Shown here piece by piece: positions 29,301-57,063 of a stretch of 64,000 nt of DNA. A program made the position numbers and the translations under genes. The notes beneath the pieces are model-generated. The model did no database searches. It saw nothing but the letters and a program-made list of their open reading frames with translations, and was not told the origin of the DNA. How positions within the stretch are numbered: the first letter of the stretch is position 1; every line of letters begins with the position of its first letter. The stretch is from Tubulanus polymorphus. Lineage: Eukaryota > Animalia > Nemertea. The DNA lies in NCBI RefSeq assembly GCF_964204645.1, contig NC_134036.1, forward strand, positions 5,858,600-5,922,599, read 5' to 3'.

Positions 29301-32300
29301 TTCATATAATTTCCAAATAAACGAATACATTTCCATTGTTATGTTAAATGACATCAGCAAAAGCAAATAGACACAAACTACTACACTACTGTGTTTAGGA
29401 TGGTTTAAGAGATTGGACGCCGATTGATACGAAAAGTAGATTTCATGCAATCATTTTCTTTCTTTAAAATCGTTGCGAATTAACGCGCGAACAGTGTTCG
29501 ACTCTGGACGAACGGTTAATGGAATTTTATCGGGTTAGTCTTTCTATAGCCGACTAGCTATTGAATACCAGTGATTAAGCCATAAGTAAATAAAGAAGTT
29601 ACTTGGGATGTTTAATCAATTGATGACAATGTACAAGTAAAACCAGGCCTATGAGACACCCGTAATGTAAAATGATATCATGCAAGATATTCATATAAGC
29701 GTATTTTAGTCCTGATTTGAATGAATGTACCCACGTTTTAGGCAATGAATCGAGACTTGGTTTTATCCCATAGCGTCATCGCTAGTACATGCTTGAGATG
29801 AGATTGTTGGTTTATATTTTGAACTCTGTAAAGAAGTTTTGTTATTATTACATTTTATTTGTTACAATTTATTATGTCTAAAAAAACTCAACTCATAGAT
29901 TCTAGATTTAATTGCACTTCTGTTAACTAAAGATGATAGTAATGATGTATAGATGTATAATATGATGACCGAACGTTTGATGAGGAATAACTACTGTGGT
30001 TAGATACAATTCTCATTCTTAGGATACGAATCGGTTGATTGAATTCGGTCATTTAAACTACTGGCTAATTTACAGTGGTCACTATTGAAACGATTAATTG
30101 AAGTGCCCTTGAAATCAAGATAGATTCCTGTTGCGTAAATTAACTAATTTTTAAGCGACCACCTTCTATTGTCGGTATTCGGTTAGCTCTTGGTTAGCCA
30201 GAAGTTTTACCATACATACTCGGACTAGATGATTGAATTAAATCTTAGAATCAAAATATTGTCACTGGAGTAAATATATATTCCTTATTACACTTTCAGC
30301 AGTGATCATATTTTACATGTAAATTGAAGGTATTACTGTCATCTAAAGTTAATAAGGTACTAGAATCGCAAAATTTAAGTTGTTCAAAACCAACATGAAA
30401 ATGAGAAGTAAATACACAATATCCGTGTATGGTGAATAACGAGGCAAATCCCACAATGAATTCAGCAAAAAATCTTCTACGAGCAATGTTTCGGCTAATG
30501 CTATTAGCCATCATCAGGCCCCCGTCAACATAAAAATATTGATACGTAAATCGAATCCATATCATAAGCATACTATACCACAAGTTAAAAAGAGTTATTT
30601 AGTTCGAATTAAAAGATAGTATGAATAAAATTATGAAAAGATAGTATGAATAAAAAGTTCATTAATTTCATTTATTCTATGAATTTATTTAAAGATTTAT
30701 TTCAACAAAAGAGATCAATGCACAGTTAAATATATTGCAGTTGTATTGTGGATGAATATGTTTGAATAAATATCGTGCTTTCAAATGTTCTTGAAAAATC
30801 GCCAAGTGAGGATTTTACCTAGGGGATTTTTACCTACAACCATCTAAAATGCCCCAGGCCCTAAATCCAGTAGGTTTATGGCGAAAGGTTAAGATTAGGA
30901 ATGTATTAGCAATATAATTTTTTGAAACAGTATTTTGTCTCCCGATGATTTGATTTGCAGGTCAGACTTATGGTTGACCAAAGTTCTTAAAGTGAATTGC
31001 TTTAAAGTAATAAATATCAATGAAACAATATCATAGATTTTGAAGTGAGTTATTTTGTAATAATCCAATTTAAGTGCACTCCGATGCATGCTAAATTCTT
31101 ATAAATTCATTTATAAATTTAATTTATGCATTTTCCCTCCTCACTTATTCATTCTATATTAGTTTTACTAATGAACATAACAGTGGCTTGTGCCTAATGT
31201 CAATAAGCAGCGATTGGGTGCCGCCTCTCTGTGTTAATCTATCACGAAAGATTTAACTCGATTAGAGCCGCTGAAAACGTATTTCTTTGCAGCCTAGAGT
31301 TTATGCATACATGTTCTAAATCAAGACAATATGCTCTATATCAGAGCCTATACTAAAGCATGCACTCATAATTCGTTTAAGAGTCCGATGCTTAATTGTG
31401 AGAGTTGTTATACAATGAGTAATTAAATGGTGGGATTACAATGGGAGAGATCATTTCATCAGCCACATCGTTGCCCCAGGGAGTTAGTTATATTCGTTAT
31501 AGCCAAAATACCTTGACCATGGACTCTAAAACGCTTTAATGTCTAAATCGTTTTAGAGTCCATGACTTGACAGAATATAGAAATTTGCCCAGAAAAAGTT
31601 ATGCATATTCCAACAAAAAAGAATCAATAAAGACTTATATTTTGAATTTAAATGAAGAGACAAGTAGTACTTTAAAGGTTAACTATTTATTTCGACGCAC
31701 GAGCTTTCGCTTCTAATGTATAGAAGCTTCAATGAGTGAATTATTAGAATTGGTACATTTAGTAAATTCCGGAAACAAAACCTAGTCTTAAGAACTACCA
31801 TTAACCAAGTTTCAAAGAATTTTGTTCCCTTATGATATTGAATGGTGTGAAATTGAAGTGTCCCTAATGATATATCTTTATGTAAGTTCAACTAACTTAC
31901 CCAGTTAGTGATGATAGTTGAATAATTAACAAAATAATAGTTGGAATATCGTTTAGGACAAATTAGGATTTTACCGGGTAAGTTTTTTCCTAATAGGCTA
32001 CCTTTTTGAAGAGCATGCATCCTGAGATACGTATACAAAAATTCGTTTGATGCTAAATGCAGAGTTTTCACGGTAGAACATATTTGGACATCAATTAATC
32101 ACGTGAAGGGTAGAAATGACAATTTGTCACTGCTGAGCTTATTTCCCTTCACTCAACTTTTTTTAAAGTTTTTTCAATATTCTCTAATCCGACATTATAT
32201 ACGCTGCGTACTAACTGTACACAATTTCGGGTTTGGGTTGTTTTTGAAAAAAAAACAGATTCCCAGCAAATTGTAATTTTTGGGTTCTTGAAAACGGTCA

Positions 32301-35300
32301 ATATGTTATAGCAGGTTAATGTAAAACCGCATAGAATAGCTACAATGAACAACATGTATCCAGGAAAATTTATATTTCAGAACACGATCGATTTCACTGA
32401 ATTTAGCCTCATCATGTAGGATAAAATGAACTTCTGTTGATATTGCGATTGTGCTGTCGTTAGCTGTCCCATAGCTTATTCGACTCGCTATCGAAAGTAA
32501 CAAAACAATGGTCACATGTGTCAATGAACTTATCGCTATTCGAAGTAATGTGCGTATTGAAAAATTTCTCAAGCACTTCGAATTTCCGATTGCTTAAACG
32601 CCAAATTTGCATTCGAATTATTAAGCCGATCTATTCTAATTCATACCTGGTCGTGTTATAAGCAATTCAAGCGTTTAGTTTGTACTTTAAAATAAAATGA
32701 AATAGATTGATTGATGAAATACAAATCAAGTCAAACAAACTCAACTAACTGACTACTACTGAGTTATTTGTATTCGATGAAAGAACATATTCTAGTTAGT
32801 TGAAAGAACATATTCTAGTTCATTGGCGCGAACCTTGATTATTGTCTAAGTTGTACTATAACTAACATGCCAATGGATGTGTACATGCGCCTCTCTGATT
32901 GGCTAGAATCCTTGCATTCGATGGCGGCATCAGTGAACTAACGGGGAAATTAGAATTGTATGTTTGACCACGGATTCTTTGTTTTTGAGTCCATGGTTTT
33001 GGATCTGGTTTTATCGTGAGTTTGATTAACGTACATTGTAGAGAACAATGGTGGGGATTCGAATAACGTGCATCCTTTATTCAGAAAGAGTATCATTACG
33101 TATATACATATAGAAATTATTACAATAACTTTAATCAGAATTATCTCATCACGCAGAACCAGTGAAATAGCCGTTGTAAAGCCGCAAAGTAAATTGAATG
33201 AATGAGTAGGTGCTCACGCATTTGTTTCCATTTCATAAGAATCAATTCCAAACAGATGAATCAGATTCGAATTTTTGCTTCTTCGTTATGCGAAGTTTTT
33301 TTTTATATCAGAGACTCTTATACGATTTAGGTTTTAGAGTCCATGGTTATATGAATATCTTATGATTTCTCAACTTAGGAAAATACTTAGGAATGCCATT
33401 GAACGTTTGGGTAAAAAGTTATGCTAAATTTGATTACCATCGGCTTTTTAGATAATCTCCACGAAGGTCACAATTTTAGTGATTTGACCTTGGGAGGTTT
33501 AAACCTCCCGAATCCAATTTGCGAAATATCGGTCCTCTTTGTCGGCGGTAATGAAAGAATAAATAGAGCGAAGTTTCTATTGTGCGCCGACCGCATTTTG
33601 TTCACGAATAGCTTACGTAATAAATTGAAAGTTGAGATCATAGGCGGATATAGCGCTCTATGGCCCACGTTCAATTCATAAACTGGTCCGCAAATAAAGT
33701 GTTTAGAAGTATAATTGACACGTTTGTACGATTTTGCGCTGTAAATTTATCATTTTTCAGGACTCAAGGACCAGAAATTGGCAATATTTTTGATACAAAC
33801 TGAGAAAGTATCAAAACATTTGGGAACGTGTTATCGGTAAAAAAAATGAAAATCAGTGAGATATCGAATTTCGGAATAAGGGATTGAATTAGATTAATCA
33901 TGGTCGGTTGAAACTTATTCGTTTAATATCAAAGAGTAAATGGTTTATCCCTGTTGAGCAGAGATAAGGGGTCAATTGCAAAGTCGGGTCTTAGATTGAA
34001 TACCATTCTGACAACTTAAGACCAATCTCGCGGATTGAGACAACTTAAAGCCTCTCGGGCCGGTTGCATAATCTGGACGTAGACTTAAGACCAGTCTAAG
34101 ACCATCTTAGTTCTATTGCCAATCTAACAATAAAGACCAGTCTCAAGATTTATGGACTTAATTTTTGGACTGAAGCCATGACTCTGCAACTGGCTCCAGG
34201 TTACTAACTAAGCAACAAGATCCAGGCCGTGAAATAAGGCTCAACCCAGTGTATTTGGGATGTGAGCCATTTTAAAATATCATTAATATTTCCGGAATTC
34301 TAGTGTAGACTGTTGCTGATCTATGGATGTCAATCTGTTCAAGATTATCTAATTAATTAGTGACTCCACAACTTAAACGGTATCACTTACTGCGAAAGCG
34401 TTTCGGCGAGCATGAACTGCACGACGTCCATTTTGATTTCGGTGACCTTCACCCTGGGTACCACCTGGCAGTAGCCCTTCTCGTCGTGTGTCACCAGGTA
34501 CAGATTGTCGTTTTCGTCGTCTTAGATGGAGAAAATAAACGGATAGAAATTTTGAACAAAGTTTGGAAAGTAACTCGGACTAGAAAGTAGCGAGAATTGC
34601 GTCGGTAACTGTAATTATAATATTGATGATATTGTTTAGTATTGATGATATCAAATATTTCAATATTTCAATATTGATGATATTAATAGTAATATAATTT
34701 AATATTGATGATATTAAATGTTATGATTTAGATATTTGTGATATTGACGTACGACCACGCCACCAGGTGCAGTGTTGCGAGCGCATATTCGGGCAACGAG
34801 AGGGATACACGAATTGTCCGATTTGAAAATTGGTTTTGGTTATATCTGCCAATTTGAGAATTTTTGCAGTCTTAAATAGTGGTGAGGTATGGGCTCTTAA
34901 ATCAGCTTTTAATGATAATGCCGACTGCTTTCTTCTGGAGGAGTTCAAGATTTCTTAAGTTAGAAGAATAAGTGGTAACCTATACGATATTACAAATAAT
35001 CAGTCGTTTCAACGTACTAACCACAAGTAAACGATTCGTTTTTGGCGGAAAGATAAAAATCTGCATGAAAGTCACTTAAAAATGAACTAAATTATGGCGC
35101 GGAAGTCGTATTGATGCATGCGCCATCTAGCGGATCAGTTGGTGCTCAGCAATGGGTTCTCGATTCACATTTCAATTCACCCGACGTTCGCTTACCGTCG
35201 TTAGTAGCGTATTGACCCATGTACCATCTGGTGGGCGGTTTCACCGGTTCGGTGTCTTCCTCGTCGGCGGCCGCTTGTTGCTGCAGTTGAACCTTCCTGG

Positions 35301-42193: not shown

Positions 42194-43315
42194 TTAAAAC
42201 ATCGCTTTCAGTTGATTTCGAAAGCGACGCCTCGAAACGCAATAAATGACGAAATTACAAGACGCTACGATCATTCTGATTATATTTTGAATTTGGTTCA
42301 TAATTGTTGATAACGATCCTTTTCCAAGTTTTCCGTTGAGAGTGAGAATTAGATTGTGGATCGATGATCTGAGATCAAAAGCTTTCTTCATCAAAAATAA
42401 ACATGAAATGAGAATTAACGTCAGAGTTAAACTACGGTCACTGCTGCTGCTGCTGCTGTTAGAGGTTTGATTATTTGGAGACATGGTTTTTCTCGCTGCT
42501 CCTGCGCGTCTTAACGTGAAAATCAATCGAATAGTTATTAGAACCACTATCACCGTCGGTAGTGTAGTTATAACTAGAGCGCGGGCAAACACTTCATAAT
42601 ATTTCAAATATGCGTTTTTAGCAAATGGAGTCAACCTCCGAGTCCATCTCTCGTGTCCGGTGCACGGATTGATAGATTGACTTGTATAATATTTGAAGTA
42701 ATTTCTCATCTGATCGCAAACTGAAATGATCATAACAGAATTGATGCAGATATAACTTCTCTTCATACCAATAATTATGAAACTTTTCAGAGGCCAACAA
42801 ACGACGATATATCTGTCTATAGCTATTAACAATGTTATCAGATCACTGATACTTGAAAATGAAAGTCGGGTGAATTGAGTATATGAATACATGCGCTTCA
42901 TAACGCGGTTTATTTCAGCAGTCATGTCCAGTAACAGCGTGTGACTGTAGAGCCGATACTGAAAGTCGAATACAATATAAGACAAACAAATAAACATGTC
43001 CGCAACAGCCAAACATCTCAAATAGAATATACTGGTGTTGATTGGACGTTCTTTACTGAGAATGATAAAAGACAGTAAATTTGTACCGAAACCCCAGATG
43101 GCTATGCTGAAAATGACGTAAGTCGTGATCTGTAGATACAGATTCACGTGAAACGGTTTGTAATCGGCGTGATGGATGTATTTACACCGCGGATGAGGTT
43201 TAAACCCCGCCTTCTCAGTGGTGGTTGTTGTCAGGTCTGATCCGTTTAGGTCGAGAAACTGAGCGCCAACCGATATATTTTCTGTAGCCTGCATTTCAGT
43301 CGGCACTCCGAACAC
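42194..43315 (-). CDS. Intronless rhodopsin-class GPCR, subfamily C copy 2
   Basis: 373 aa, close paralog of 39569-40687 with the same motifs; the true start may be the Met at 43294. Confidence 0.92.
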   Translation of the reverse strand: MFGVPTEMQATENISVGAQFLDLNGSDLTTTTTEKAGFKPHPRCKYIHHADYKPFHVNLYLQITTYVIFSIAIWGFGTNLLSFIILSKERPINTSIFYLRCLAVADMFICLSYIVFDFQYRLYSHTLLLDMTAEINRVMKRMYSYTQFTRLSFSSISDLITLLIAIDRYIVVCWPLKSFIIIGMKRSYICINSVMIISVCDQMRNYFKYYTSQSINPCTGHERWTRRLTPFAKNAYLKYYEVFARALVITTLPTVIVVLITIRLIFTLRRAGAARKTMSPNNQTSNSSSSSSDRSLTLTLILISCLFLMKKAFDLRSSIHNLILTLNGKLGKGSLSTIMNQIQNIIRMIVASCNFVIYCVSRRRFRNQLKAMF

Positions 43316-43548: not shown

Positions 43549-43613
43549 ATGCAAACTTCAAGCACAACGAAACTGCTTGAAATTGAAATCGCGCAGTTCT
43601 GGAGTTGAACGTC

Positions 43614-44198
43614 AGTAATAGGGGTAATAGGCTTTCATACCAAAGGTCGAACGGTCGAGCCCATTAAAAAACAAAATATTAAAAGTAATTAAAAAACTAT
43701 AATATATTTTCATAACCGCGTGCATTTTATATCAAAACTAAATATTTATTCTAAGATATCAATAATATAAAAAGCATATTGTATTAAATCAATTAGTCGC
43801 TCCACTTCGCTACCGCTCCGCTCCGCGACCAATTGATTTAATTACAATACACAAATTCAAATAATCAAATATATTCAAATGATAATAATTATTCTATTAT
43901 TCAACTGAAATGCACGCGGTTATGAAAATATATTATAGTTTTTTAATTACTTTTAATATATGTTATTAATGAACTCGATCATTAAACCTTTGATATGAAA
44001 GCCTATTACCCCTATTACTCTTAAAATATTCATTTAAATCATTGAACTTCTAAAATCAATTTTAATAAAAAATATAGTATTAAAATGGAAGCAAATAAAT
44101 ACTACTGCCCAACATGTAATATCGATATAGACAAGTCTCAAAAAGCAAGACACAATAAAACTATAACACATTTAGAGAATAAATTGAAACTAGAATAT
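43614..44198 (+). repeat. Maverick left TIR (585 bp)
   Basis: Reverse complement of 61353-61937; no mismatches seen by eye. Confidence 0.95.
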
Positions 44199-44321
44199 TT
44201 ACAGTTATATTCAGAACAGTTAACAAAAGGAAAGAAATTTATTGAATTATGGAACACTGATCCAAATAATGAACAATACGTTGAGGATACGATGTTTATA
44301 CTAGAACATGATTCTATTTGA
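44085..44321 (+). CDS. Chimeric 78-aa ORF: pPolB N-terminal zinc finger fused to a duplicate of the HNH-ORF C-terminus
   Basis: aa 1-38 are identical to the pPolB N-terminus (inside the TIR). LQLYSEQLTKGKKFIELWNTDPNNEQYVE resembles the end of 45631-46296. Confidence 0.55.
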   Translation: MEANKYYCPTCNIDIDKSQKARHNKTITHLENKLKLEYLQLYSEQLTKGKKFIELWNTDPNNEQYVEDTMFILEHDSI

Positions 44322-45029
44322 GCCTATATACATTCAATGTACAGAGCTATAGAATAAATCTATAAATTCGCAGCTGTTACGGTTGTTACTATAACAACGA
44401 GACATTATGACACGTCATAATCAGAAACGTGTAGAACACTCTAGAACCGGAACTAGATGACGTGGCATAATCAACGACGTGTCATTCTAGAAATCGCCCC
44501 GGAAATGGACATACGCTGTAATATTGTGCTCAGGATATTCTATCTTTCGAAACGAAATAAGGAGTTTATAGTTTACAATTATAAATCTAAATGTAAGTAC
44601 TGTTTGTTGTAGTTATTAGAGCTATTAAATATGAAACCTTTAGATATATTTAAGTGTATTTAGTATATCTTTTAGATAGATAGAGTTACCGCTAATATCT
44701 TTTAGATTAATAAAACACCATACGAATCAAGAAGTGATAGAGAAACTCAAGATACTCTTTCTGACTGAGGAATCAACAGCAATGGATATCAAACCAATAG
44801 AAACTGGCGTAGAATCACCAAAAGATCGACGAAGAAACTATATAAGAATTTCAAAAACATTAAGACTCCAATGATTAAGTTTAACATTTGTTGATGTAGT
44901 TAAATATTTACCAACAATTGAAAAAATGTTTGTAATTATAAATTGTATTTATAGAAATCAAATGATGTATTGGAAGAAACGACTGAACAACTTGTATAAT
45001 GTATTGTGTAAATCTGTTTGGTGAATTTT

Positions 45030-45495
45030 TATGTTCAGTCGTTTCAATAATAATTCGTTTCAATTATGATTAGCGCATGCGCATTAAGCAAAAGCGCTCC
45101 TATAAGAGCGGTTTTGCCTAATGCGAACACGTTTTGATATTTTATGTCGGTCGTTTCTATTTACATAATTATATATTCATTATGTAAATATAATTATGAT
45201 TAACGCATGCGCATTGATCAAAAACGCTCCTATAAGAGCGGTTTTGCCTAGTGCACATGCGTTTGAATTTTCTATGTTCAGTTGTTTCTATTTCACAGAA
45301 TGAATATATAATTATGATTAACGCATGCGCATTGATCAAAAACGCTCCTATAAGAGCGGTTTTGCTTAGTGCGAACACGTTTAGATATTTTTTGTCAGTC
45401 GTTTCTATTTTACAGAATTTACAGAATGAATATATAATTATGATTAACGCATGCGTATTAAGCAAAAGCGCTCCTATAAGAGCGGTTTTGCCCAG
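45030..45495. repeat. Four ~118-130-bp tandem repeats with internal palindromes inside the Maverick
   Basis: aattatgattaacgcatgcgcatt...aaaacgctcctataagagcggttttgc at ~45062, 45192, 45310 and 45437. Confidence 0.9.
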
Positions 45496-45630
45496 TGGTA
45501 TTATTTAGATATCAAGGAATCGAAACAACTTATCAAAAGCAGCGAGGAATGAAAAAGGATGGCGTTGATCGAAGAAATGGAAGAGGATTATAAAATATTA
45601 ACCAATTTAGTAAAAAAATACATATAATAA

Positions 45631-46296
45631 ATGGAACCAGAACAACCACAAACTATCAATATTACAAATAACACTGGTGTTATAAACATATATTACAAGA
45701 AGTGTTCTAAATGTGAATTAGATAAATCATTAACAGAATTTAGTAAGCGTAAGATTAGCAAAGATGGTTTTCAATATTGTTGTAAAACTTGTACTAAACT
45801 ATATACCAAACAATATCGAGAAGATAATATAAAACATTATAATTATTATATGACAAAATATATGAGAGAAAGATATCAAACAGATCTTAATTTTAGATTG
45901 AAACAATGCTTAAGGACTAGATTAACACAATTATTCAACAAAGAAACACATTCAGAAACACTATCTAATTTATTGGGTTGTTCGGATGAATTTCTCAAAT
46001 CATGGATTATATTTCAATTCGATGATAAAATGAATATAGATAATTATGGGGATTATTACCACATTGATCACGTGTTACCAATATCTAAATTTAACATGAA
46101 TGATGAATACAATAAAAAACTTATTTGGGGTTGGAAAAATTTAAGGCCTTTAGAAAAGAAAGAAAATCAAATCAAATCTAATAAACTAGATTTACAGTTA
46201 TATTTAGAACAGTTAACAAAAGCAAAGAAATTTATTGATCAATGGAATAATAATCCAAATAATGAACAATACGTTGAGTCTTTAATGAGTGGTTAA
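45631..46296 (+). CDS. HNH / endonuclease VII-like nuclease with N-terminal Cys4 zinc ribbon (NCLDV-type)
   Basis: CSKC...CKTC, then YHIDHVLPISKF...WKNLRPLEKKENQIKSNK (beta-beta-alpha-metal motif). Confidence 0.8.
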   Translation: MEPEQPQTINITNNTGVINIYYKKCSKCELDKSLTEFSKRKISKDGFQYCCKTCTKLYTKQYREDNIKHYNYYMTKYMRERYQTDLNFRLKQCLRTRLTQLFNKETHSETLSNLLGCSDEFLKSWIIFQFDDKMNIDNYGDYYHIDHVLPISKFNMNDEYNKKLIWGWKNLRPLEKKENQIKSNKLDLQLYLEQLTKAKKFIDQWNNNPNNEQYVESLMSG

Positions 46297-46521
46297 AGAT
46301 TAATATATCTCAAATAAAATATAATAAAAATTACATACCTTCAACTATCTATTATTTCTATTTTAATTTTTAATATTTTCTTTTCAAAAGAGAATACTTT
46401 ATATCACAAATAAAAAATACTAAAAAAACAATAACTAATACTAGAATTCTTTAGCTTTAACTAGCTAGTATCATTTGAAGAATACTTATAATACTATTCT
46501 TATTAAATTTCTATAATATAA

Positions 46522-47127
46522 ATGTCTAAGAAATCGAATAAGAATAATATTAAAGTTGAAAAAACTTTGGAAGATTTAGGTCTAACAGATGATAATGATA
46601 ATGTGGTAACTAAATGTGATAATAAAATTGATAGTAATATTGATTATGAATACTATTTATATTGTAAGCATCATCTAGAACTATTGATTGCGAGTGGAAA
46701 AACTAAAGAGTTTATTGGTAAAACAATAACTTTTCAAGAATTAGATAATATGAACAAAGAAAAAGTAATTAAATATTTTAAGATTTATGAAGAGTCAAGA
46801 TTAGCTAGAATAAATGATTCTATTTCAGATGGTATTGTCAAATGTTATTCAAAATTATGTAACCGGCTAATACCAATTGATGATGAAAATAAATTATATA
46901 GTGATTTGAAAAATGACTACTTAGTTATGACTGAATTACAAAAATGGGTTGGATATGCTTCATTTCAATTAGGATCGGTTATGACATTGATTTCTACTGG
47001 CGTCATAACATTTTCGAACATCAAACCTATGGAATATAAATCAGGTAAGAACGAAACAGATGTACTACAACAAAACGTCGAAACAGAAAATGAATCAGAA
47101 CAAAAATTAACTAAAATAAATGAGTGA
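46522..47127 (+). CDS. Maverick hypothetical protein (201 aa; hydrophobic segment near the C-terminus)
   Basis: Intact ORF, TAAATG start, overlaps the next ORF. Confidence 0.75.
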   Translation: MSKKSNKNNIKVEKTLEDLGLTDDNDNVVTKCDNKIDSNIDYEYYLYCKHHLELLIASGKTKEFIGKTITFQELDNMNKEKVIKYFKIYEESRLARINDSISDGIVKCYSKLCNRLIPIDDENKLYSDLKNDYLVMTELQKWVGYASFQLGSVMTLISTGVITFSNIKPMEYKSGKNETDVLQQNVETENESEQKLTKINE

Positions 47128-47482
47128 TGGAGTTAAGAAAAAGGCTAGATCCGAGAAACAAATTAAATGGGCAAGAGAATTAGGTAAAAGATCATCAGAA
47201 TTAAAAAAAGCTAAGAAAAAGAAATTAACTGATATAAATGAATCACCTGGTATTGATTCAAATAATAATCCATCTAATAGATTCAGCACAGCTGAATCTC
47301 ATAATTACTTATATATTACAATTGGGTTAATCACAATTATTATATTATCCGGTGTAATATATAAATCAAAATTCAAATCTGACGATAAAGATGATCGGAA
47401 ACTTAGTTATCCATGTACAGACAATAAACCACCAGAAAATAAATCAAATGAAAATAAATCTAAAATATTATTAATGGATTAA
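47120..47482 (+). CDS. Maverick small basic protein with one transmembrane segment
   Basis: Lys/Arg-rich N-terminus; YLYITIGLITIIILSGVIY; TAAATG start. Confidence 0.75.
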   Translation: MSDGVKKKARSEKQIKWARELGKRSSELKKAKKKKLTDINESPGIDSNNNPSNRFSTAESHNYLYITIGLITIIILSGVIYKSKFKSDDKDDRKLSYPCTDNKPPENKSNENKSKILLMD

Positions 47483-47485
47483 AAT

Positions 47486-48574
47486 ATGATGAAAAAAGAA
47501 CAATATTTAAGAGATTTATATTACAACCCAGAAAGTGAAGTTTCATATTCAAGTGTTTCGGAATTATGGGATAAAATTAAATCTGATAAAGAAAAAATAA
47601 AATATAGTGAATTAAAATCATGGTTACAAAATCAACCAACATATCAAATTCATAAAAAGATGGATAAAAAATATTTAACAAGAAAAGTTATGGTTTCATA
47701 TATCGATCAGCAATGGCAAGCTGATTTAATTGATATGAAAAACTTAGAAGAATATAACAAAGGATATTTTTGGATACTGAATGTTATAGATATATTCAGT
47801 AGATACGCATGGAGTATCCCGATAAAAAATAAAACTGGTATAGAAGTAACAAATGCTTTTAAATCTATATTTAAAGAAGCTATTCCAGATAAGATACAAT
47901 TTGATGAAGGTAAAGAATTTTATAACAAACATTTCAAAAAACTATTATCTGATAACGATGTAGAATATTTTTCAACACATTCAGATAAAAAAGCATCTGT
48001 TATAGAAAGATTTAATAAAACATTGAAAACTAGAATGTGGAAATATTTTACTGCTAATGAAACATATAAATATATCGATGTGTTAGATGATTTAGTTAAA
48101 GGTTATAATAATTCTAAACATAGTTCTATAAATATGAAACCTATACAAGCTAGAAAAGAAGAAAATTCAGAAATAGTTTGGAATAATTTATATGGAGCAT
48201 TTGTTACACATGATTTTGGAGAACCTAAATTTAAAATAGGACAACACGTAAGAATTTCTAAATATCGAAAAACATTTTATAAAGGTTATACCCCTAATTT
48301 TACAGAAGAAATATTCAAGATTAAAAAGATAATATTAACTAAACCATTTGTTTATAAATTGTTTGATTTAAAAGATGAAGAAATATTAGGTTATTTTTAT
48401 GAACAAGAATTATCATTAGTACCAAATCCAGATGAAATAGAATACAAAATAGAAAAGGTATTGAAAACAAAAACTCTTAAAGGAAAAAAGTATTCTTTGG
48501 TGAAATATAAAGGATATGATGATAAATTTAATGAATGGATTTTATCTAGTAAAATTAAAAGAATAAATGAATAA
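47486..48574 (+). CDS. int: Retroviral-like (rve) DDE integrase with C-terminal chromodomain
   Basis: WQADLIDM, IDIFSRYAW, IQFDEGKEF, KASVIERFNKTLK; chromo-like YKIEKVL...LVKYKGYDDKFNEWI. Confidence 0.96.
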   Translation: MMKKEQYLRDLYYNPESEVSYSSVSELWDKIKSDKEKIKYSELKSWLQNQPTYQIHKKMDKKYLTRKVMVSYIDQQWQADLIDMKNLEEYNKGYFWILNVIDIFSRYAWSIPIKNKTGIEVTNAFKSIFKEAIPDKIQFDEGKEFYNKHFKKLLSDNDVEYFSTHSDKKASVIERFNKTLKTRMWKYFTANETYKYIDVLDDLVKGYNNSKHSSINMKPIQARKEENSEIVWNNLYGAFVTHDFGEPKFKIGQHVRISKYRKTFYKGYTPNFTEEIFKIKKIILTKPFVYKLFDLKDEEILGYFYEQELSLVPNPDEIEYKIEKVLKTKTLKGKKYSLVKYKGYDDKFNEWILSSKIKRINE

Positions 48575-49181
48575 AGATTTATTTATATTTGAACCACATA
48601 ATATGTTAGTTACTGGAGTTACAAATTGTGGTAAAACACATTTCATATTAGATTTATTAGAAACTATTTATAAGAATCATTTTGATAATATAATATTATT
48701 CTGTCCTACATATGAAATGAATGAAACGTATAATAGAGATATAGTTTTTAAAGATAAAAAGTTTATTATATTAAATTCTAAAACAGTGAAAGATAATTTA
48801 GATAATTGTATAAAAATTGCATTAGATATTTATAAAGGATCAAATACATTATTTATTATTGATGATTGCGCAAATTTACATGATTCTAAAATTAGAGAAA
48901 GTGAGTTATGTTATTTAGCTTTCTCTGGTAGACATTTTGGGATAACAACTTGGGTTTTAAATCAGAAATATAATTCAATTGTGAAAGATTTTAGAGAGAA
49001 TATAAGATTTCTAGTTTTATTCTACAACAAAGATAGAAAATCTATGCAACAATCATTGGAAGAAAATCAAATTATACCTCCTGAATTACATGATGAATAT
49101 ATGAATAAATTAAAAAATAATAAAGGTTCAAAATTATTACTGAGATTACAATTTCCATATGAATATAAATTTATAAAATAA
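48567..49181 (+). CDS. A32/FtsK-like DNA packaging ATPase
   Basis: Walker A GVTNCGKT, Walker B LFIIDD, SGRHFGITTWVLNQ (Arg finger and Gln). Confidence 0.93.
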   Translation: MNKDLFIFEPHNMLVTGVTNCGKTHFILDLLETIYKNHFDNIILFCPTYEMNETYNRDIVFKDKKFIILNSKTVKDNLDNCIKIALDIYKGSNTLFIIDDCANLHDSKIRESELCYLAFSGRHFGITTWVLNQKYNSIVKDFRENIRFLVLFYNKDRKSMQQSLEENQIIPPELHDEYMNKLKNNKGSKLLLRLQFPYEYKFIK

Positions 49182-49199
49182 CTATTTGTATACCTATGT

Positions 49200-49310
49200 A
49201 TTAGATACCCTATTATATACCCTAATACCTGATACCCTAATACCTGATACCTTAATACCTGATACCTTAATACCTGATACCCTAATACCTGATACCCTAT
49301 TAGATACCTT
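49200..49310. repeat. 15-bp tandem repeat between convergent gene blocks
   Basis: (ctaatacctgatacc)n, about 7 units. Confidence 0.9.
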
Positions 49311-49367
49311 AAATAATTTAAACCCCCTTTTTTATTTACTATTATTTTATACAATTTTAAACCTTTA

Positions 49368-50339
49368 TTATTCGAGTTTTAGATAATCAATTTCTGAATC
49401 ACTTTCACTATCAGACGCTAACAATTTATTTAAATGCTCTACCGAATCTTCTTCAATATCTTTATAATTTTTTTTCACCTTTTTCACCTTTTTCACCTTT
49501 TTTACCTTTTTCATATTTTTTACTAAATCATCAATAGTTGTTTCATTTTTAAACTTATTCTTCCAATCAAATTTATTATTATTTTCTACTTTAAGTTTTA
49601 TAGAATCTTTATTATCAATATGTTTAACTGTAACTATATCATCATGTGGGTGTATGGCACCATTTTCATTATCATCTTTATTAGTGTTTGCTCCTAATAT
49701 TTCATTTACAGTGTTTGATCCTAATATTTCATTAGCATCGGTTAAATCTAATTCATCTTTATTAGGTGTTGCTAATAAAAAATCTTCATATAATTCTTTA
49801 CCATTTACTTTTTTATTTGAAACAAACTTTGTAACATATCTAAATGGGTGTTCTATAAATTCTCTTAAACCAACACGTTCTATAACATTAGTAATATGTG
49901 AATTTGTATTTATATGTTTATTCCAATTTGATGGAGCGTTTGAAAATTCACCATTACAATAACCACAATAATTTCTATTTTCACTAACATCTAATATTAT
50001 TGTATTATTATATGTAGAAGGTATTATATTATTTGATGTAGAGGGTATTACAGATGTAGAAGGTATTATGTTATTAGATGTAGAAGGTATTACATTATAA
50101 GATGTAGAAGGTATTACGTTATTAGATGTAGAAGGTATTACATTATTATCAATTACATTACTTAAATTATCAACAACTTCACTTTTATTATTATCGATTT
50201 CTATTAGTTTAGTTTTATAATTTTTAAAAATAGGATCAAATATCAAAGCTATATTACAAGGTATTACATAATATAAACCATCATTATTTTCATGTGTATC
50301 GATGTATGGAATATGTTTATATACTTTACCTCCTTCCAT
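49368..50339 (-). CDS. Maverick hypothetical protein with C2H2-type zinc finger, VIPSTSNN repeats and (KKV)n tail
   Basis: YCGYC...WNKHINTNSH; 24-bp coding repeats at ~50010-50150; TAAATG start. Confidence 0.8.
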   Translation of the reverse strand: MEGGKVYKHIPYIDTHENNDGLYYVIPCNIALIFDPIFKNYKTKLIEIDNNKSEVVDNLSNVIDNNVIPSTSNNVIPSTSYNVIPSTSNNIIPSTSVIPSTSNNIIPSTYNNTIILDVSENRNYCGYCNGEFSNAPSNWNKHINTNSHITNVIERVGLREFIEHPFRYVTKFVSNKKVNGKELYEDFLLATPNKDELDLTDANEILGSNTVNEILGANTNKDDNENGAIHPHDDIVTVKHIDNKDSIKLKVENNNKFDWKNKFKNETTIDDLVKNMKKVKKVKKVKKVKKNYKDIEEDSVEHLNKLLASDSESDSEIDYLKLE

Positions 50340-50371
50340 TTATTATATATATTTTTATTAAAGTTAAAATT

Positions 50372-51619
50372 TTAATACATAACACTATCTAACTGTGAAT
50401 CTACAATATTTAATTGCGCATCAGATATAATATAAATATGCATTTTAAAATTTTTGATTCCCTTTTTCTTTGTCATGAATAATTGTATTCCATCTTTTGT
50501 ATTTTGTAGTTTTTTCCCAGAACCATGTAATGAATTATCCTCTGTTGTTCTAAAATCTAACCATAATGCATATTTATTACCGGTATAATAGTCAATTTGA
50601 TTAATATTACAATTTTCAAATGATTTTATTTTTTCATTCATAAAATGTTTTTTAATTTCTACCCATTGATCTATCATTCTCATTCCTTGACAAAATATTT
50701 TATTTGCTATTCCTTCGATAGTTATTTCTACTTTTGTTATTTCAGGATTATAATAATTATCAACATTTATTGCGCCATTAGTATACGTTCCAATGGTAAA
50801 AAATATTAATATACCTTTAATAGATCTTCTAGGAAAGTTAATATTCTCATTAATAATTTCATCATTTGCATTAAAAGTTACAGTTTTAAATTTATCAATA
50901 TAATCATATAATAATGAAAATCCTTGATTGTATTGAGTTTGAATTATAGTTGAAATATTTTCATCAGTTACTGTATCATATTCTAAACATATATTCGATA
51001 ATTTATAACTCATATCTTTAACAACGCTAGATAATACAATTTCATTTACAGGAGCAAATGTTATCTCAAATATAATATCTTCTTGAATTGCGTATTTATA
51101 TAAAGGTGCATTATTATTTATCAATTCAAAATCTAATGGAATTTTATATTTACTTCCATATATACTTTTTATCAATTTATCTACATCATTAGTTAATATT
51201 GCGCTATTAGCTTCTGATCTTAATCTATTTTGGTTTTCTGATTGGATGCCTTGAAATATCATATTATTTCTATTTTCTTTAGTTAACCATAAATCTTTAT
51301 AGTGCATAAATAAATTATAATCATCTAATGAGAAAACTGTTTCCGGACCAATCTTTATTGTTAACTTTTTAATCAAATATCTTCCAACATTATCAACAAC
51401 ATAATTATTATTATTACCGATTACTTTTATATCAGCGGATAAATAAATACTATTTGGAACGTAAAAAGTATTTTGTGTTAATCGAGGGATTCTAACGTAT
51501 AAAGTTTCATCGGGATTAATATTTGAAGGGTTATGAGTAATTATATGATGTGATCTTTCTGCTTTAATAGCATTAGATATTCTATTATTCTTAGAAGGAT
51601 TGATATAACTCCCACTCAT
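50372..51619 (-). CDS. Putative major capsid protein (double jelly-roll)
   Basis: 415 aa, beta-rich; motifs ITHNPSNI...LYVRIPRL, YKLSNICLEYD, ENINFPRRSIKGILIFF and YALWLDFRT...LHGSG resemble invertebrate Polinton MCPs (from recall, not a search). Confidence 0.75.
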   Translation of the reverse strand: MSGSYINPSKNNRISNAIKAERSHHIITHNPSNINPDETLYVRIPRLTQNTFYVPNSIYLSADIKVIGNNNNYVVDNVGRYLIKKLTIKIGPETVFSLDDYNLFMHYKDLWLTKENRNNMIFQGIQSENQNRLRSEANSAILTNDVDKLIKSIYGSKYKIPLDFELINNNAPLYKYAIQEDIIFEITFAPVNEIVLSSVVKDMSYKLSNICLEYDTVTDENISTIIQTQYNQGFSLLYDYIDKFKTVTFNANDEIINENINFPRRSIKGILIFFTIGTYTNGAINVDNYYNPEITKVEITIEGIANKIFCQGMRMIDQWVEIKKHFMNEKIKSFENCNINQIDYYTGNKYALWLDFRTTEDNSLHGSGKKLQNTKDGIQLFMTKKKGIKNFKMHIYIISDAQLNIVDSQLDSVMY

Positions 51620-51685
51620 TTATTTAACAAAAAAATAATTAATTTTTGATATCATGGTTTACTTGATATTTTTTGATATCATGGT

Positions 51686-53383
51686 TTACTTGATATCTTT
51701 TGATATCATATTCACTAACCCAAAAATAATAGCACTTACAACTGTAATTAAAAATAAAATAATATGTTCAGCAGCAAAGTTAATAATGTTTCCTGCAGAT
51801 TTCAATATAAAACCAACAATTGATGCAATAACTCCTGGTAATGCTGCAGCAGATTTTTTAGATAGTTCCCATAAATATTTTGCTAATTTCTTTAAACCAT
51901 CTTTAACTTTATCTTGCATAGAATTATTGTTTGGAGGTTTATCTGGTTTATTGGGAGTAGGAGTAGATTTTAAAGCATTTGATATTACTAAACCAATTGT
52001 TGTAAATACCATAGTTACAGATGTTAGAATTGAAAGAATTGTTATTCCTTCTAACTTAAATAATAACTTTATTCTGTCTTTTAATGATATTTCAGAATTT
52101 GGTTTAATCAACAAATCTTTAAAAATAACTTTTAATCTATTAATATTATAATCATATGATTTTAATAATAATTTAATTTCTTCTTTTTGTAATTCTATGT
52201 TATATTCTAAATCATCTATTTCTTTTTCTAAATATACATTTCTTTTTTTAAATTCGATTTCTTCAATAACTTGATTATCTCTATCTAATTTTAGTTGTTC
52301 TATTTCTTTATTTTTATCAGTTCTATCTTTTTCTAAAAATCTAATTTTAATATCTCTTTTACTTTTTTCATGCGCAATTTTATCAGCTGATTCTTGCATA
52401 CCTTTAATTTCTCTACGTGTTTGTTCAGGAAATGCTTCTAATTCATCATCAGTTAAATCAAGTAATCCTTTTTCTAGTAAAGATTGTATTCGATTTATTC
52501 CAGCACTATTCATCAGTTCTTCTGAATCTCTTAATCTATCAATTTGTTTTTCTAATTGTAATTTACTTGAATCATTATCAATTTGTTGAGTGTCTCTTCT
52601 AGATGTTTCGGGTGTTGAAGATCTTAATCTATCTAATCGATTTCTATTCTCTTCCATTTCTGGATCAAAATCAGTAGGATTTGGATTTGGATTTTTAAAT
52701 GGATTTTTAAATGGTGAATATTTGTTTATATCAATTTTAGGAATTGGTTCTTCTTCATTTATTCTATCGAGTGCATTCCATATAATTCTGAGAAATTCTG
52801 TGCCACCTTTTGAATGTTCAATTGTAGATAATGCTCGCATTTCAGGTTCATAAATATTTTCTTGACCCATTTTAGATAATTGAATTGATACAATTTTGTT
52901 ATTTAAATCAAGATTATAATACCATGCATCATTTTTAAATTCTAAATTATTCATGAAATATGGGTCATCTTTAAAAATTTGTTCTACAACACCTTTTGGA
53001 TCAATTTCATGTATTACAGCTATTGGTAGTAATTCGCTAACAATTGTATCTGTTACTTTAGATTTCATTTTATATAATTCCAAACGTTCATTAGGATATT
53101 TTTCTTCTTGTTTTACTAATAATTCCATGAATTCTTTTCTTTCTGTTCTAGTTGAAATTTTACCACTTTCAAGAGCTTCTAAATATTTATTTAATTTTTC
53201 ACGTACTTCGGTATTAATTCCATCATCATCATCATAATCATCTTCACCTAAATTAGTATTATATGCTGATTCATCATCATAATCAATATTAGTTTCTGTA
53301 TCATTATAATCATCATCAATATATCCTTCATTATTATTTCCCATTTCTCCCATTTCATAATCTTCTCCACCTTCTACATCCAT
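51686..53383 (-). CDS. Maverick 565-aa protein: acidic N-terminus, long coiled coil, C-terminal hydrophobic/amphipathic helices (candidate membrane-penetration protein)
   Basis: GITILSILTSVTMVFTTIGLVI, ALPGVIASIVGFIL and IILFLITVVSAIIFGLV segments. Confidence 0.8.
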   Translation of the reverse strand: MDVEGGEDYEMGEMGNNNEGYIDDDYNDTETNIDYDDESAYNTNLGEDDYDDDDGINTEVREKLNKYLEALESGKISTRTERKEFMELLVKQEEKYPNERLELYKMKSKVTDTIVSELLPIAVIHEIDPKGVVEQIFKDDPYFMNNLEFKNDAWYYNLDLNNKIVSIQLSKMGQENIYEPEMRALSTIEHSKGGTEFLRIIWNALDRINEEEPIPKIDINKYSPFKNPFKNPNPNPTDFDPEMEENRNRLDRLRSSTPETSRRDTQQIDNDSSKLQLEKQIDRLRDSEELMNSAGINRIQSLLEKGLLDLTDDELEAFPEQTRREIKGMQESADKIAHEKSKRDIKIRFLEKDRTDKNKEIEQLKLDRDNQVIEEIEFKKRNVYLEKEIDDLEYNIELQKEEIKLLLKSYDYNINRLKVIFKDLLIKPNSEISLKDRIKLLFKLEGITILSILTSVTMVFTTIGLVISNALKSTPTPNKPDKPPNNNSMQDKVKDGLKKLAKYLWELSKKSAAALPGVIASIVGFILKSAGNIINFAAEHIILFLITVVSAIIFGLVNMISKDIK

Positions 53384-53399
53384 TTACATAATAAAAAGA

Positions 53400-54788
53400 T
53401 TAAAATTTAAAATATAATATTCCTCCGATTACAATTCCTATACAAGTTATAGCTAATTTAGTATTTTCATGGGATTTATTATCATCATTTAGTTTAATTA
53501 TATCATGTTGAATTTTATCAGTTCTATTATTTTCTGTAGTATTGTAATCTTTTATTTTAGAATCATTATCCAATTTAATATTCTTAGTTTTAGTTTCAGT
53601 TGATTGAATATGTTTTTTATTTTTTTCACCTTCCATTAATTTTGGAGCAGTAATAATCTTTTTATTTATATCATTTAATCCAAATGAATTATTTATTGTT
53701 GCAGTTTTAATTAGATTATTATAACCAATTATGTTTCCCATCTTTAATACTAAATCATTAGAAATAATTAATAGATTAGGGCCTATACAATAATTAAGTC
53801 TTACATGAGATTTATCTAAATAATTTTGATATCTTATAATGTTTTCTGGAATCGATCTATTTTTATCATTATGAATTGAATCTTCAAATAAAACTTTAAA
53901 TTGTTTTTGTGTATCAAATGATGTATTCAAATTTCCAATTATCGGTGATCTTGTTTCAACTTGTGATCCTAGAATACAAATCAAATAAATTCTAATAGAT
54001 TGATTTATTCTTTCTATACCTGATTTTGTAAAACCTTCACTATTTTCTAAAATAAAATAAACCCAACCATTATTGTTTTCTTGTTTTAAATTATCATAAA
54101 ATTTTGGTAATTTATTGAAATTTAATGTTTCTAAATCCTTTGTTTCTATTTTACCATAACCTAATTTATTATTATAGATATTATAAAAACTATTAGATGG
54201 TATGGGAAGTGCACAATATTCTGCAATCTTTTTAGGGCAAGGAAGTGATCTTATTGTTCCAATTTTTGTTCTAAAATCAGAATTATTTATATCTATATTA
54301 AATTCATTGCAAATTTTATAAAACTTAGATAAATTAATATTATTATCTAATTCTTTAAAATATCTAGATCCTGGTAAAGCGCACTCTAATTCATTTAATA
54401 TTATTCTGATTTGAAAATATGTATGAAATCTAAATAAACTTTGAATTAGTTTATATTTAGAATTATTCAAATGATCATTCCAACTTATTCCACATCCTGT
54501 TGTTGCACAATAAACAGCAAAATTTAATTGGTTCTGCCAATACTTCATATTAGATTTTAATAACCATTGTTTTTCATCTTTCGATTTTTTAAAATTAATT
54601 AAATATACATGAAATATATTTTCCATCTTTGTATTAAAATTATTAGTTTCAGTAACATAAATTTCTAAATTAGTTAATGAATCTAAAACTTCATTTCTAT
54701 ATGTAATATCTTTATTAAAATCTATTGCTGGAATATTATATTTAATTGATTTATTATATTGGAAAGCTTTTGGAAAACTATCTGCCAT
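53400..54788 (-). CDS. Maverick 462-aa protein with C-terminal membrane anchor
   Basis: WQNQLNFAVYCATTGCGIS and FRFHTYFQIR motifs; tail LAITCIGIVIGGILYF. Confidence 0.8.
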   Translation of the reverse strand: MADSFPKAFQYNKSIKYNIPAIDFNKDITYRNEVLDSLTNLEIYVTETNNFNTKMENIFHVYLINFKKSKDEKQWLLKSNMKYWQNQLNFAVYCATTGCGISWNDHLNNSKYKLIQSLFRFHTYFQIRIILNELECALPGSRYFKELDNNINLSKFYKICNEFNIDINNSDFRTKIGTIRSLPCPKKIAEYCALPIPSNSFYNIYNNKLGYGKIETKDLETLNFNKLPKFYDNLKQENNNGWVYFILENSEGFTKSGIERINQSIRIYLICILGSQVETRSPIIGNLNTSFDTQKQFKVLFEDSIHNDKNRSIPENIIRYQNYLDKSHVRLNYCIGPNLLIISNDLVLKMGNIIGYNNLIKTATINNSFGLNDINKKIITAPKLMEGEKNKKHIQSTETKTKNIKLDNDSKIKDYNTTENNRTDKIQHDIIKLNDDNKSHENTKLAITCIGIVIGGILYFKF

Positions 54789-54804
54789 TTATATAATTAA
54801 AAAA

Positions 54805-55239
54805 TTAATAATTTATTAATTCTTTTAATAATTTATCTTGTTCTTCAACTGTTATATGACCATTTAAACTTATTATATAATCTAGTGTGTTCTTTAATTT
54901 ATTAATTTCTTTTATATTAATTTTAATTTTTTCTTTATTACTTTTTATATTTAATTTTGAACTTATACCAGTTAAAACACTTGAACTTAATCCTAACACA
55001 CCAATTGATATAGCTAAAGGTGTTAATGGACTGAATATTGCTAGAAATGTTATTACAGAACTAATTGTAACCGAACCACTGATAATCAAATAATATATAA
55101 TTTTACTTTTTAAATATTTTTTCTTTTTTATCTTTAAGTCACTTTCAAATTCTAATATTTGTTTTTCTAAATATGTTTTTAATTTAGTTTTATTTATATC
55201 ATGAGGAATAATATCAATACTATCAACTTTATCTTCCAT
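54805..55239 (-). CDS. Maverick 144-aa two-TM membrane protein
   Basis: IIYYLIISGSVTISSVITFLAIF and LAISIGVLGLSSSVLTGI between basic coiled segments. Confidence 0.78.
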   Translation of the reverse strand: MEDKVDSIDIIPHDINKTKLKTYLEKQILEFESDLKIKKKKYLKSKIIYYLIISGSVTISSVITFLAIFSPLTPLAISIGVLGLSSSVLTGISSKLNIKSNKEKIKINIKEINKLKNTLDYIISLNGHITVEEQDKLLKELINY

Positions 55240-55259
55240 TTATTTAACAAAAAAAATTA

Positions 55260-55682
55260 CTAATTAGTAAACTTATAAGCAACAAATATAACAATAACTG
55301 TTCCACCTAAAATCCAAATTATTTCATATTTCTGTTGTTCTTTACTTGGGGTATAATAATCTGATAATTTAGGTTTGTATAGATGTAATTTTTCTTTATT
55401 GGTTACTGTGTTATATAAACTCATTGCATCATCAACTGATTGAAAATCTCTGTGTGAAATCTTCTGATCGTATAATTCTTTATTGATGTAATCCATATAG
55501 TTTTGTCTCTTTTCTCTATATTCTTCTACAGCTTTATTGTATTTCTCTAACGCTAAGTTATGTCTTCTTTGTTCTCCTAATGAACTATTTTTATCAATAT
55601 GTTTAAATAAATAACCACCACCAGTAAATGCTAAAGCGTTAACAATTGCTGATCCTATAATAGTTATAATTGCAGAAGCCAT
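55260..55682 (-). CDS. Maverick 140-aa membrane protein
   Basis: Hydrophobic N-terminus MASAIITIIGSAIVNALAFTGGGYLF, EQRRHNLALEK, C-terminal TM IIWILGGTVIVIFVAY. Confidence 0.8.
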   Translation of the reverse strand: MASAIITIIGSAIVNALAFTGGGYLFKHIDKNSSLGEQRRHNLALEKYNKAVEEYREKRQNYMDYINKELYDQKISHRDFQSVDDAMSLYNTVTNKEKLHLYKPKLSDYYTPSKEQQKYEIIWILGGTVIVIFVAYKFTN

Positions 55683-55706
55683 TTATTTAGCAAAAAAATT
55701 ATGTAT

Positions 55707-55928
55707 TTATATGGGAGGAATACATTTTTGTTTTTCCAAATGACCAATAGTTAAATTAGATAAAGTAACTGCTAATGTTAACTTTAAAATATCATTTATA
55801 TCAAATCTATCAACATTAACACTTCCCATTTTGAATACTTTTTTTAATACCATTGAATAACCAACAGTTCCAACTGATAGTAATGCGCCATTATATAATC
55901 CAGTTATTATCCACTTATAATCACTCAT
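55707..55928 (-). CDS. Maverick 73-aa hydrophobic protein
   Basis: Two hydrophobic segments; T-run plus TAAATG start like its neighbours. Confidence 0.72.
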   Translation of the reverse strand: MSDYKWIITGLYNGALLSVGTVGYSMVLKKVFKMGSVNVDRFDINDILKLTLAVTLSNLTIGHLEKQKCIPPI

Positions 55929-56270
55929 TTATTTATCAAAAAAATTACTATCATCAAAATATTTAGTTATCTTATTTATGATTATTTCAACATTTATTTC
56001 ATTACTAGTTTTATGATTATCATATATTTTGGATAATATGTTTTTAATATCATCAATAATTCCATCTTCATTTAATTCATAATATTCTAAAGGTGATTTA
56101 ATTAAATCAATTACTTTTTCTATATTATACTTTTCTTTATCAATCATTGATGTATTGTTAAATGATTTACTTTTTATATCAGTAATTACATCATTTAGTT
56201 TAATTCTCATTTCTTTACCATGTTTAAAATCAAACCCAAAACATATACTCGGTCCAACAGTTATATTCAT
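55929..56270 (-). CDS. Maverick hypothetical protein (113 aa)
   Basis: Intact ORF, T7-N7-TAAATG start; its stop abuts the next ATG. Confidence 0.7.
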   Translation of the reverse strand: MNITVGPSICFGFDFKHGKEMRIKLNDVITDIKSKSFNNTSMIDKEKYNIEKVIDLIKSPLEYYELNEDGIIDDIKNILSKIYDNHKTSNEINVEIIINKITKYFDDSNFFDK

Positions 56271-56287
56271 TTATATAGTGAAAAAAA

Positions 56288-57046: not shown

Positions 57047-57063
57047 TTATTTTACATATTTTC

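Follow-up and report, generated by a model that had tools for sequence, protein, structure and literature searches.

Terminal inverted repeats of a Polinton/Maverick element from Tubulanus polymorphus contain an imperfect fold-back whose arms carry matched changes

Introduction

Adenovirus inverted terminal repeats (ITRs) pair with the opposite end of the genome, and an ITR that pairs with itself is not part of the adenovirus model. AAV and other parvoviruses have small single-stranded DNA genomes that replicate through rolling-hairpin synthesis by means of an HUH nickase and occur in equimolar flip and flop forms, and the telomeres of poxviruses have covalently closed ends, come in flip and flop versions, and rely on a dedicated resolvase that acts on concatemer junctions. 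For Polintons, protein-primed replication is, to our knowledge, a model only, in which the combination of an excised single strand, pairing between the two terminal inverted repeats (TIRs) and protein priming has never been tested, and we know of no eukaryotic virus-like element for which a hybrid of protein-primed and hairpin-type end replication has been described.

Palindromic ends have been described in Polinton-related elements of the protist Halocafeteria seosinensis, where the available parts of a preprint show palindromes (52 nt in the figure example) within TIRs, beside the target-site duplications (TSDs), in four virophage subtypes and one PLV subtype, and propose hairpin priming in replication (bioRxiv 10.64898/2026.07.28.741278). 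The terminal inverted repeats of bidnaviruses are thought to be derived from Polintons, together with the protein-primed family-B DNA polymerase (pPolB), and in the portion of the bidnavirus paper available they are said to form no parvovirus-type hairpins (PMC4061559). Within the portions available, the adintovirus and bidnavirus (PMC4061559) papers make no mention of hairpins in Polinton-type repeats, and our literature search found no account of hairpin or palindromic ends in animal Polintons.

Here we describe an element in a 64-kb window of Tubulanus polymorphus DNA (the whole stretch analysed, 64,000 nucleotides) whose TIRs are self-complementary over their outer two thirds. As in the AAV/parvovirus ITR, a palindrome that pairs the terminal base is followed by a non-palindromic inner part, and both ends are alike; unlike AAV, the element is an 18-kb double-stranded DNA with a protein-primed polymerase, its palindrome is three times longer, and neither an HUH nickase nor flip/flop was found. 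It shares with adenovirus a protein-primed family-B polymerase, identical and copy-correctable terminal repeats and a short direct repeat at the very tip, but the adenovirus ITR pairs with the other end, whereas here the TIR pairs with itself. The likeness to poxvirus telomeres lies in an AT-rich, incompletely paired terminal fold-back with kept mismatches; poxviruses, however, have closed ends and a junction resolvase, and here only integrated copies are seen. MITEs and Foldback/Galileo elements (for Galileo, PMC3573991) are likewise palindromic modules that bear, on either side, the end motif used by an autonomous partner, but they are separate elements with their own TSDs, while the module described here forms both tips of a full-length element. 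The Halocafeteria elements, as far as the preprint text available goes, are also integrated and Polinton-related, with an rve integrase and palindromic TIR extremities next to the TSD; those palindromes are ~52 nt long and lie mainly in protist elements that lack pPolB, whereas the present one is a 406-bp imperfect palindrome with an asymmetric block and matched arm changes, in a pPolB-bearing animal element (10.64898/2026.07.28.741278).

Results

The element occupies 18,324 bp at 43614-61937, and its GC content is ~24%, compared with ~40% in the surrounding host DNA. A script comparison of both ends found 0 mismatches between the TIRs over 585 bp. The main features of the element are:

43608-43613: left copy of the TSD, AACGTC, directly outside the TIR
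43614-44198, plus strand: left TIR, 585 bp, the reverse complement of 61353-61937
47486-48574, plus strand: rve integrase (PF00665, E 1.8e-9, 38.2 bits against a cut-off of 32.6)
48567-49181, plus strand: A32-type packaging ATPase (PF04665, E 1.7e-12)
57796-61466, minus strand: protein-primed family-B DNA polymerase gene, with its start inside the right TIR and two frames in this copy
61353-61937, minus strand: right TIR, with the mirror fold-back at 61532-61937
61938-61943: right copy of the TSD, AACGTC, directly outside the TIR

The perfect TIRs and the 6-bp TSD, together with pPolB, the rve integrase and the A32-type ATPase, all of them Polinton/Maverick traits, identify the element as a Polinton/Maverick. 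One contig from run X2 represents the empty site, running from the left flank to 43613 and then directly into 61944-61952 with a single AACGTC. The first element base is therefore 43614, and the insertion must be polymorphic. Thus the insertion is recent, and is missing from at least one sequenced individual or allele. Elsewhere in the window, the left flank contains an ORF for a 7TM rhodopsin/Srw-type receptor on the minus strand (42194-43294, Pfam), which points to an animal host, and two repeat-bounded segments with long imperfect inverted repeats that are 73-89% complementary (10863-17510 and 27696-33832) are probably older transposons of other kinds.

The pPolB match (PF03175, E 7.5e-15) lies in the ORF at 57796-59397, and the N-terminal part of the polymerase is in the ORF at 59562-61466. 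On the minus strand, a 634-codon N-terminal frame runs from 61466 to 59562, and 59568 to 57796 is open in a second frame that includes the exonuclease-type stretch FHNLSGYD. The break at 59562-59568 is a frameshift or a sequencing error, and a 164-nt intron at this position was ruled out. The integrase ORF has a weak match to a chromo-domain (PF00385, E 7.7e-5, 23.0 bits against a cut-off of 25.1). No Pfam match to a double jelly-roll major capsid protein or an adenain-type protease was obtained among the remaining element ORFs. A 462-aa ORF on the minus strand (53400-54788) recurs widely among Polinton-like contigs (145 homologues at E 1e-5 or better), with an invariant QNQLNF / CA..GCG.S signature; it belongs to no Pfam family, has no PDB fold match and is mostly helical in its model (pLDDT 70.7), and the idea that it is a jelly-roll capsid protein was rejected.

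Toward the left end, the polymerase start within the left TIR heads a 78-codon ORF (44085-44321), whose tail (44197-44285) repeats, at 91%, the tail (46190-46278) of an HNH-like 221-codon ORF (45631-46296), and GC-richer tandem repeats of ~101-130 nt lie between the two ORFs (45062-45536). To judge by its repeats and reading frames, the left arm of the element looks rearranged or may carry an insertion. Where the plus- and minus-strand gene blocks meet, 49217-49299 holds 5.5 tandem copies of a 15-nt unit that includes GGTATTAGG, a one-mismatch version of the terminal 9-mer described below.

A sequence-only reading of this DNA had proposed that each TIR is itself a 406-bp fold-back hairpin with the terminal motif on both arms, built around an inner stem with a GC-rich loop and mirrored at the opposite end of the element. 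Alignment of the arms confirmed this architecture from base 1 to base 406. The claim that the TIR pairs with itself therefore stands, although the TIR is 585 bp rather than 406 bp, and the fold-back is its outer two thirds. For the left end, the parts are as follows, with paired segments given together:

43614-44019: fold-back module of the left end, 406 bp, imperfectly palindromic, with bases 1 and 406 paired
43614-43639 with 43994-44019: terminal motif, 26 of 26 positions paired
43640-43670 with 43963-43993: diverged block, 23 of 31 positions paired, with 8 mismatches in this copy
43671-43675 with 43960-43962: small indel zone
43676-43727 with 43908-43959: AT-rich block of 52 nt, 52 of 52 positions paired
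43728-43779 with 43847-43907: weakly paired zone
~43780-43800 with 43825-43846: central stem of ~21 bp, enclosing a GC-rich 24-nt loop at the centre of the palindrome
43895-44019, minus strand: inner arm, closing with the inverted 26-nt motif at 43994-44019
44020-44198, plus strand: non-palindromic inner part of the TIR, with a promoter-like leader and the first 38 polymerase codons (ATG at 44085)

Complementarity amounts to 86% over the 57 nt of the outer block (43614-43670 with 43963-44019) and 91% over the 65 nt of the second block (43676-43740 with 43895-43959). The arms differ at 14 positions plus indels, and GC content is 42% in the outer arm (43614-43670) compared with 30% in the inner arm. 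The terminal motif, read on the plus strand at 43614-43639, contains two tandem 9-mers, AGTAATAGG and GGTAATAGG. The anticipated inner stem was found as the ~21-bp central stem, and the loop region at 43797-43827 is 71% GC and has a 16-nt period (Tandem Repeats Finder). The mirror structure at 61532-61937 and the four copies of the end motif were also borne out: the TIRs are identical over 585 bp, and the 26-nt motif occurs exactly four times in the 64-kb window (at 43614, 44019, 61532 and 61937), where 100 shuffles gave an expectation of 0.00. Folding of the 406 nt as DNA, a check that the earlier reading had proposed, gave a strong structure of -110.7 kcal/mol (z -20.3); 100 shuffled versions averaged -28.3 (sd 4.1), and none of them was as stable. 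The module thus has a terminal palindrome that pairs the 3' terminal base, a trait of parvovirus-type hairpins. It contains no known RNA family (Rfam, 0 matches at E up to 1). A role for the inner arm as polymerase promoter is unlikely, since the leader directly before the ATG resembles an internal leader (TIR positions 441-489 compared with 57387-57435).

The inner arm was evaluated with run X5, an Illumina run under the same species label from a separate study, by placing reads on the left end at a likeness of at least 95%. Reads at this likeness span the whole module, with a depth of 142-249 on the inner arm compared with 40-50 on the flank. Because the two arms disagree at 14 positions plus indels and the inner one has its own reads in X5, the inner arm is not a mis-joined reverse copy of the outer arm, and an assembly artefact was ruled out. 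A marine metagenome, run X1, has a 0.06 share of the words, and no conclusion here draws on it. The independent run also shows that sister copies keep the internal inverted arm, since both arms are present in it with matched variants (see below). A foreign palindromic MITE lying inside the TIR was ruled out as well, because the outer base of the module is the first base of the element, beside the TSD, in agreement with the empty site.

For a survey of the family, 150-nt reads were placed at 85% likeness, with 58 of the 10,818 placed reads fitting two places. Read depths at 85% likeness were:

Flank: 62
Tip, 43612-43677: 3155-4280
Rest of the outer half: 1750 down to 1130
Inner arm: 810-840
Inner motif copy: 1440-1640
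Non-palindromic part of the TIR: ~1450-1530

The tip depth is 50-70 times that of the flank. At 43613/43614, 2261 loose-end reads pass into unlike sequence with an agreement of 0.34-0.35, indicating many different insertion sites. These diverse flanks, and the empty site in X2, identify the outer arm as the end that is actually used. Reads on the inner motif copy mostly extend into 44020-44033, which identifies them as genuine inner-arm reads. At 44033 the sister sub-families part (500 loose-end reads), and the agreement of 0.80 beyond this point marks the sequence as element interior of sister copies rather than varied host DNA. A boundary at 44198 is common to the family (704 reads, agreement 0.95). 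At 43670, 658 reads depart from the outer arm for other sequence, and at 43985, 425 reads enter the inner arm from other sequence, so that sub-families have only the outermost 35-57 nt of each arm in common.

The reads also revealed variation in the length and arrangement of the fold-back. Short fold-backs of ~100-130 bp were represented by six joint types in 44 reads, joining outer positions 43649-43670 to inner positions 43980-43986 with 2-37 other letters between the arms. Centre deletions were found in sister copies (43777 to 43832 in 16 reads, 43789 to 43845 in 5 and 43777 to 43861 in 5), and in 13 reads, with opposite-strand joints at 43691-43695, the centre was inverted relative to the arm. 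We conclude that the end module truly includes the fold-back as an inherited component, and that the family is abundant and recently mobile.

At 85% likeness, both arms of sister copies show changes at positions that pair with each other, namely six substitutions and one 1-nt indel. The values below are population shares from 150-nt reads and not single-molecule linkage, and some of the pairs are unequal (38%/56% and 41%/71%):

Outer 43629 A>G, 57%; inner 44004 T>C, 52%
Outer 43638 T>G, 38%; inner 43995 A>C, 56%
Outer 43639 A>G, 40%; inner 43994 T>C, 54%
Outer 43691 A>T, 50%; inner 43944 T>A, 61%
Outer 43719 C>T, 71%; inner 43916 G>A, 72%
Outer 43723 C>T, 41%; inner 43912 G>A, 71%
Outer A-run 43691/2, 1-nt loss, 19% + 43%; paired T-run 43939, 1-nt loss, 52%

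In addition, five mismatches of this copy become Watson-Crick pairs when the majority letters are used (43661, 87%; 43965, 64%; 43979, 82%; 43984, 83%; 43795, 98.6%). The last of these lies in the central stem, where this copy has A and 98.6% of reads have G, which pairs with C43830. A bias between the arms from C-to-T editing was considered and dropped, because the majority letters change in both directions.

Four C.A mismatches in the diverged block are asymmetric in the family (43640/43993, 43648/43985, 43652/43981 and 43660/43973). No variant reaching 10% was found among outer-arm reads at 43640, 43648, 43652 or 43660, and since a 10% share would amount to ~400 reads, above the weakest variant displayed (209 reads), at least 90% of tips carry the outer-type letters. 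On the 5'-ended strand the four mismatches read C.A, and on the 3'-ended strand they read G.T, so that the latter strand folds better as DNA (-117.6 compared with -110.7 kcal/mol), a difference that is suggestive only, and their direction is not significant alone (p ~0.125).

The sequence-only reading had also suggested that each end could form a terminal hairpin like those of parvoviruses or poxviruses, with flip/flop isomers among copies. No support for this analogy was obtained. Tips in the opposite orientation would give varied loose ends behind 44019, and the number there is fewer than 391 (this position is not among the six best supported), compared with 2261 at the outer boundary; together with the four outer-arm letters, which show no variant of 10% or more, this argues that equimolar flip/flop is not present among the reads. 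Molecule ends did not pile up at 43614 in either read placement (95% and 85% likeness), and Pfam searches of the 17 element ORFs found no gene for an HUH nicking endonuclease (Rep/NS1) or a resolvase. A weak match to Endonuclease_7 (E 5e-4, below the Pfam cut-off) lies at the C-terminus of the polymerase N-terminal ORF, beside exonuclease-like motifs, and on this basis a separate cruciform resolvase was ruled out.

Relatives were sought in viral and metagenome contigs. Scans of both with the end motif gave 0 matches, and protein scans of the viral contigs gave 0 relatives. The metagenome protein scan returned 80 loci, four of which (L001-L004) are close, at 68-70% aa and 74-79% DNA identity; these four stop short of the element ends, and none of the scanned metagenome loci of at least 5 kb has TIRs. 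On a further metagenome contig, L017, which carries a distant homologue of the 53400-54788 ORF, 35-nt inverted repeats within positions 1-210 flank four to five TTAGGG units and an A-run, so that, by its repeat pattern, the start of the contig looks like head-to-head ends around telomere-type repeats.

Discussion

Our tentative proposal, to which we would give somewhat less than even chances, is that the fold-back is a cis-acting end structure on single-stranded DNA, which rebuilds a duplex terminus by snap-back and allows a protein-primed restart. In such a scheme, the 3' end of the displaced strand would snap back onto the inner arm, restoring a double-stranded copy of the end and standing in locally for an adenovirus-type panhandle; as in adenovirus, a duplex origin would be rebuilt on the displaced strand. 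The protein-primed polymerase of the element would then restart from this terminus, and the mismatched 31-nt block would mark the true end, among the two copies of the motif, for the integrase and the priming proteins. We infer that the hairpin forms in vivo. In favor of a snap-back role are the exact register between base 1 and base 406, with the 26 terminal nt perfect on both arms, and the short fold-backs (six joint types, 44 reads), which keep the arms while the loop varies. The matched arm changes, the majority letters that restore pairs and the better folding of the 3'-ended strand point the same way, as does the fact that the element encodes pPolB, with the start of its gene inside the TIR. 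The extension of the perfect TIR into polymerase coding sequence fits the idea that one end is copied from the other.

Other observations count against a snap-back role. Only integrated copies are observed, and no pile of molecule ends is present at 43614 in either read placement. The matched variants are explained equally well by shared protein binding on both arms or by gene conversion without function. The tip depth of 3155-4280 is about twice that of the inner arm, so that some sub-families may lack the inner arm at 85% likeness, in line with the 658 loose ends behind 43670. The broken pPolB frame means that this copy may depend on intact relatives. Finally, in the available parts of the 2026 preprint, palindromes at TIR tips are found mainly in elements without pPolB (10.64898/2026.07.28.741278).

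Matched changes within the 26-nt motif are expected if one protein binds both arms, and we considered it unlikely, although worth weighing, that the inner arm is a second, inverted set of sites for an integrase, priming or packaging protein on duplex DNA, and that the hairpin never forms. The perfect parts are indeed discrete blocks (26 nt and 52 nt) split by a block that is kept different, and three copies of the motif's 9-mer, each with one change, lie in the central 15-nt array (49221-49289). However, the complementarity of ~114 nt plus a central stem exceeds what binding sites need, the register is exact from base 1 to base 406, majority letters restore pairing at 43795 in the central stem, away from any end motif, and an inner copy of a cleavable end would be a hazard to the element. 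Improbable, too, in our judgment is that the fold-back is a neutral by-product, in which snap-back or template switching by the polymerase duplicated the tip, end-to-end correction spread it, and conversion keeps the arms alike. The perfect 585-bp TIR that reaches into the polymerase gene does show that one end was copied onto the other, and the structure varies widely among sister copies (loops of 2-37 nt compared with 292 nt, centre deletions and centre inversions). Yet recopying of one arm from the other would erase the four mismatches that are asymmetric in at least 90% of outer-arm reads; moreover, the design is retained in sub-families with different interiors (the break at 44033, agreement 0.80), and the family has been prolific and recently mobile despite the fold-back.

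The earlier suggestion that the module moves by itself corresponds to a different reading, in which the module is a cognate 406-bp MITE moved by the same integrase, the element consists of genes between two such MITEs, and the module also transposes alone. The module resembles a MITE in being short and non-coding with the TIRs of an autonomous partner (406 bp, end motif on both arms), and with the motif inverted on both sides the minimal substrate is complete. One contig from X2 extends from 44019 into unlike, GC-richer sequence, short fold-backs of ~100-130 bp occur in 44 reads, tips outnumber the TIR interior by ~2-3 to 1 (3155-4280 compared with ~1450-1530), and sub-families switch sequence 14 nt inward of the module. 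Against this, the 64-kb window holds no solo copy of the module, and loose ends behind 44019, which is not among the six best-supported positions, number fewer than 391, whereas the outer boundary has 2261. Taken singly, the short fold-back joints have no more reads than about one locus would give, sister sequence past 44033 is consistent (agreement 0.80), as expected for element interior, and the inner end, judging from the four asymmetric positions, seems not to serve as an end. We consider this origin of the module quite unlikely; the case for solo MITE-like copies in the family is thin. The inner arm may also, as the earlier reading proposed, offer a further site for the integrase or a second origin. 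Least probable of all would be a hairpin RNA or silencing trigger, cut to small RNAs by the host against the element or for the element's own regulation. Compared as RNA, the strand with G.U pairs is much more stable than its complement (-198.4 and -168.5 kcal/mol, respectively), but no Rfam family matches it at E up to 1, and the promoter-like leader lies inward of the module, directly before the ATG, which places the module upstream of the known transcription unit.

Snap-back could also do more than rebuild a duplex terminus. In an extended form of our proposal, which we regard as quite unlikely, the self-pairing TIR would make its own duplex origin or primer by snap-back of the 3' end, the integrase would nick the inner copy at 44019/44020 to resolve the turn-around, and the mismatched block would fix one orientation. 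If true, a self-pairing TIR with an integrase nick would combine protein-primed with hairpin-type replication of the ends.

Ends such as these carry a warning for annotation, in that they could be mistaken for nested MITEs or for assembly snap-backs. The self-pairing ends extend the 2026 report of small TIR-tip palindromes in protist virophages, in the parts of it available, to a pPolB-bearing animal Polinton (10.64898/2026.07.28.741278). With arms that change together and one block that is kept different, they provide a testable end structure for the copying of Polinton ends.
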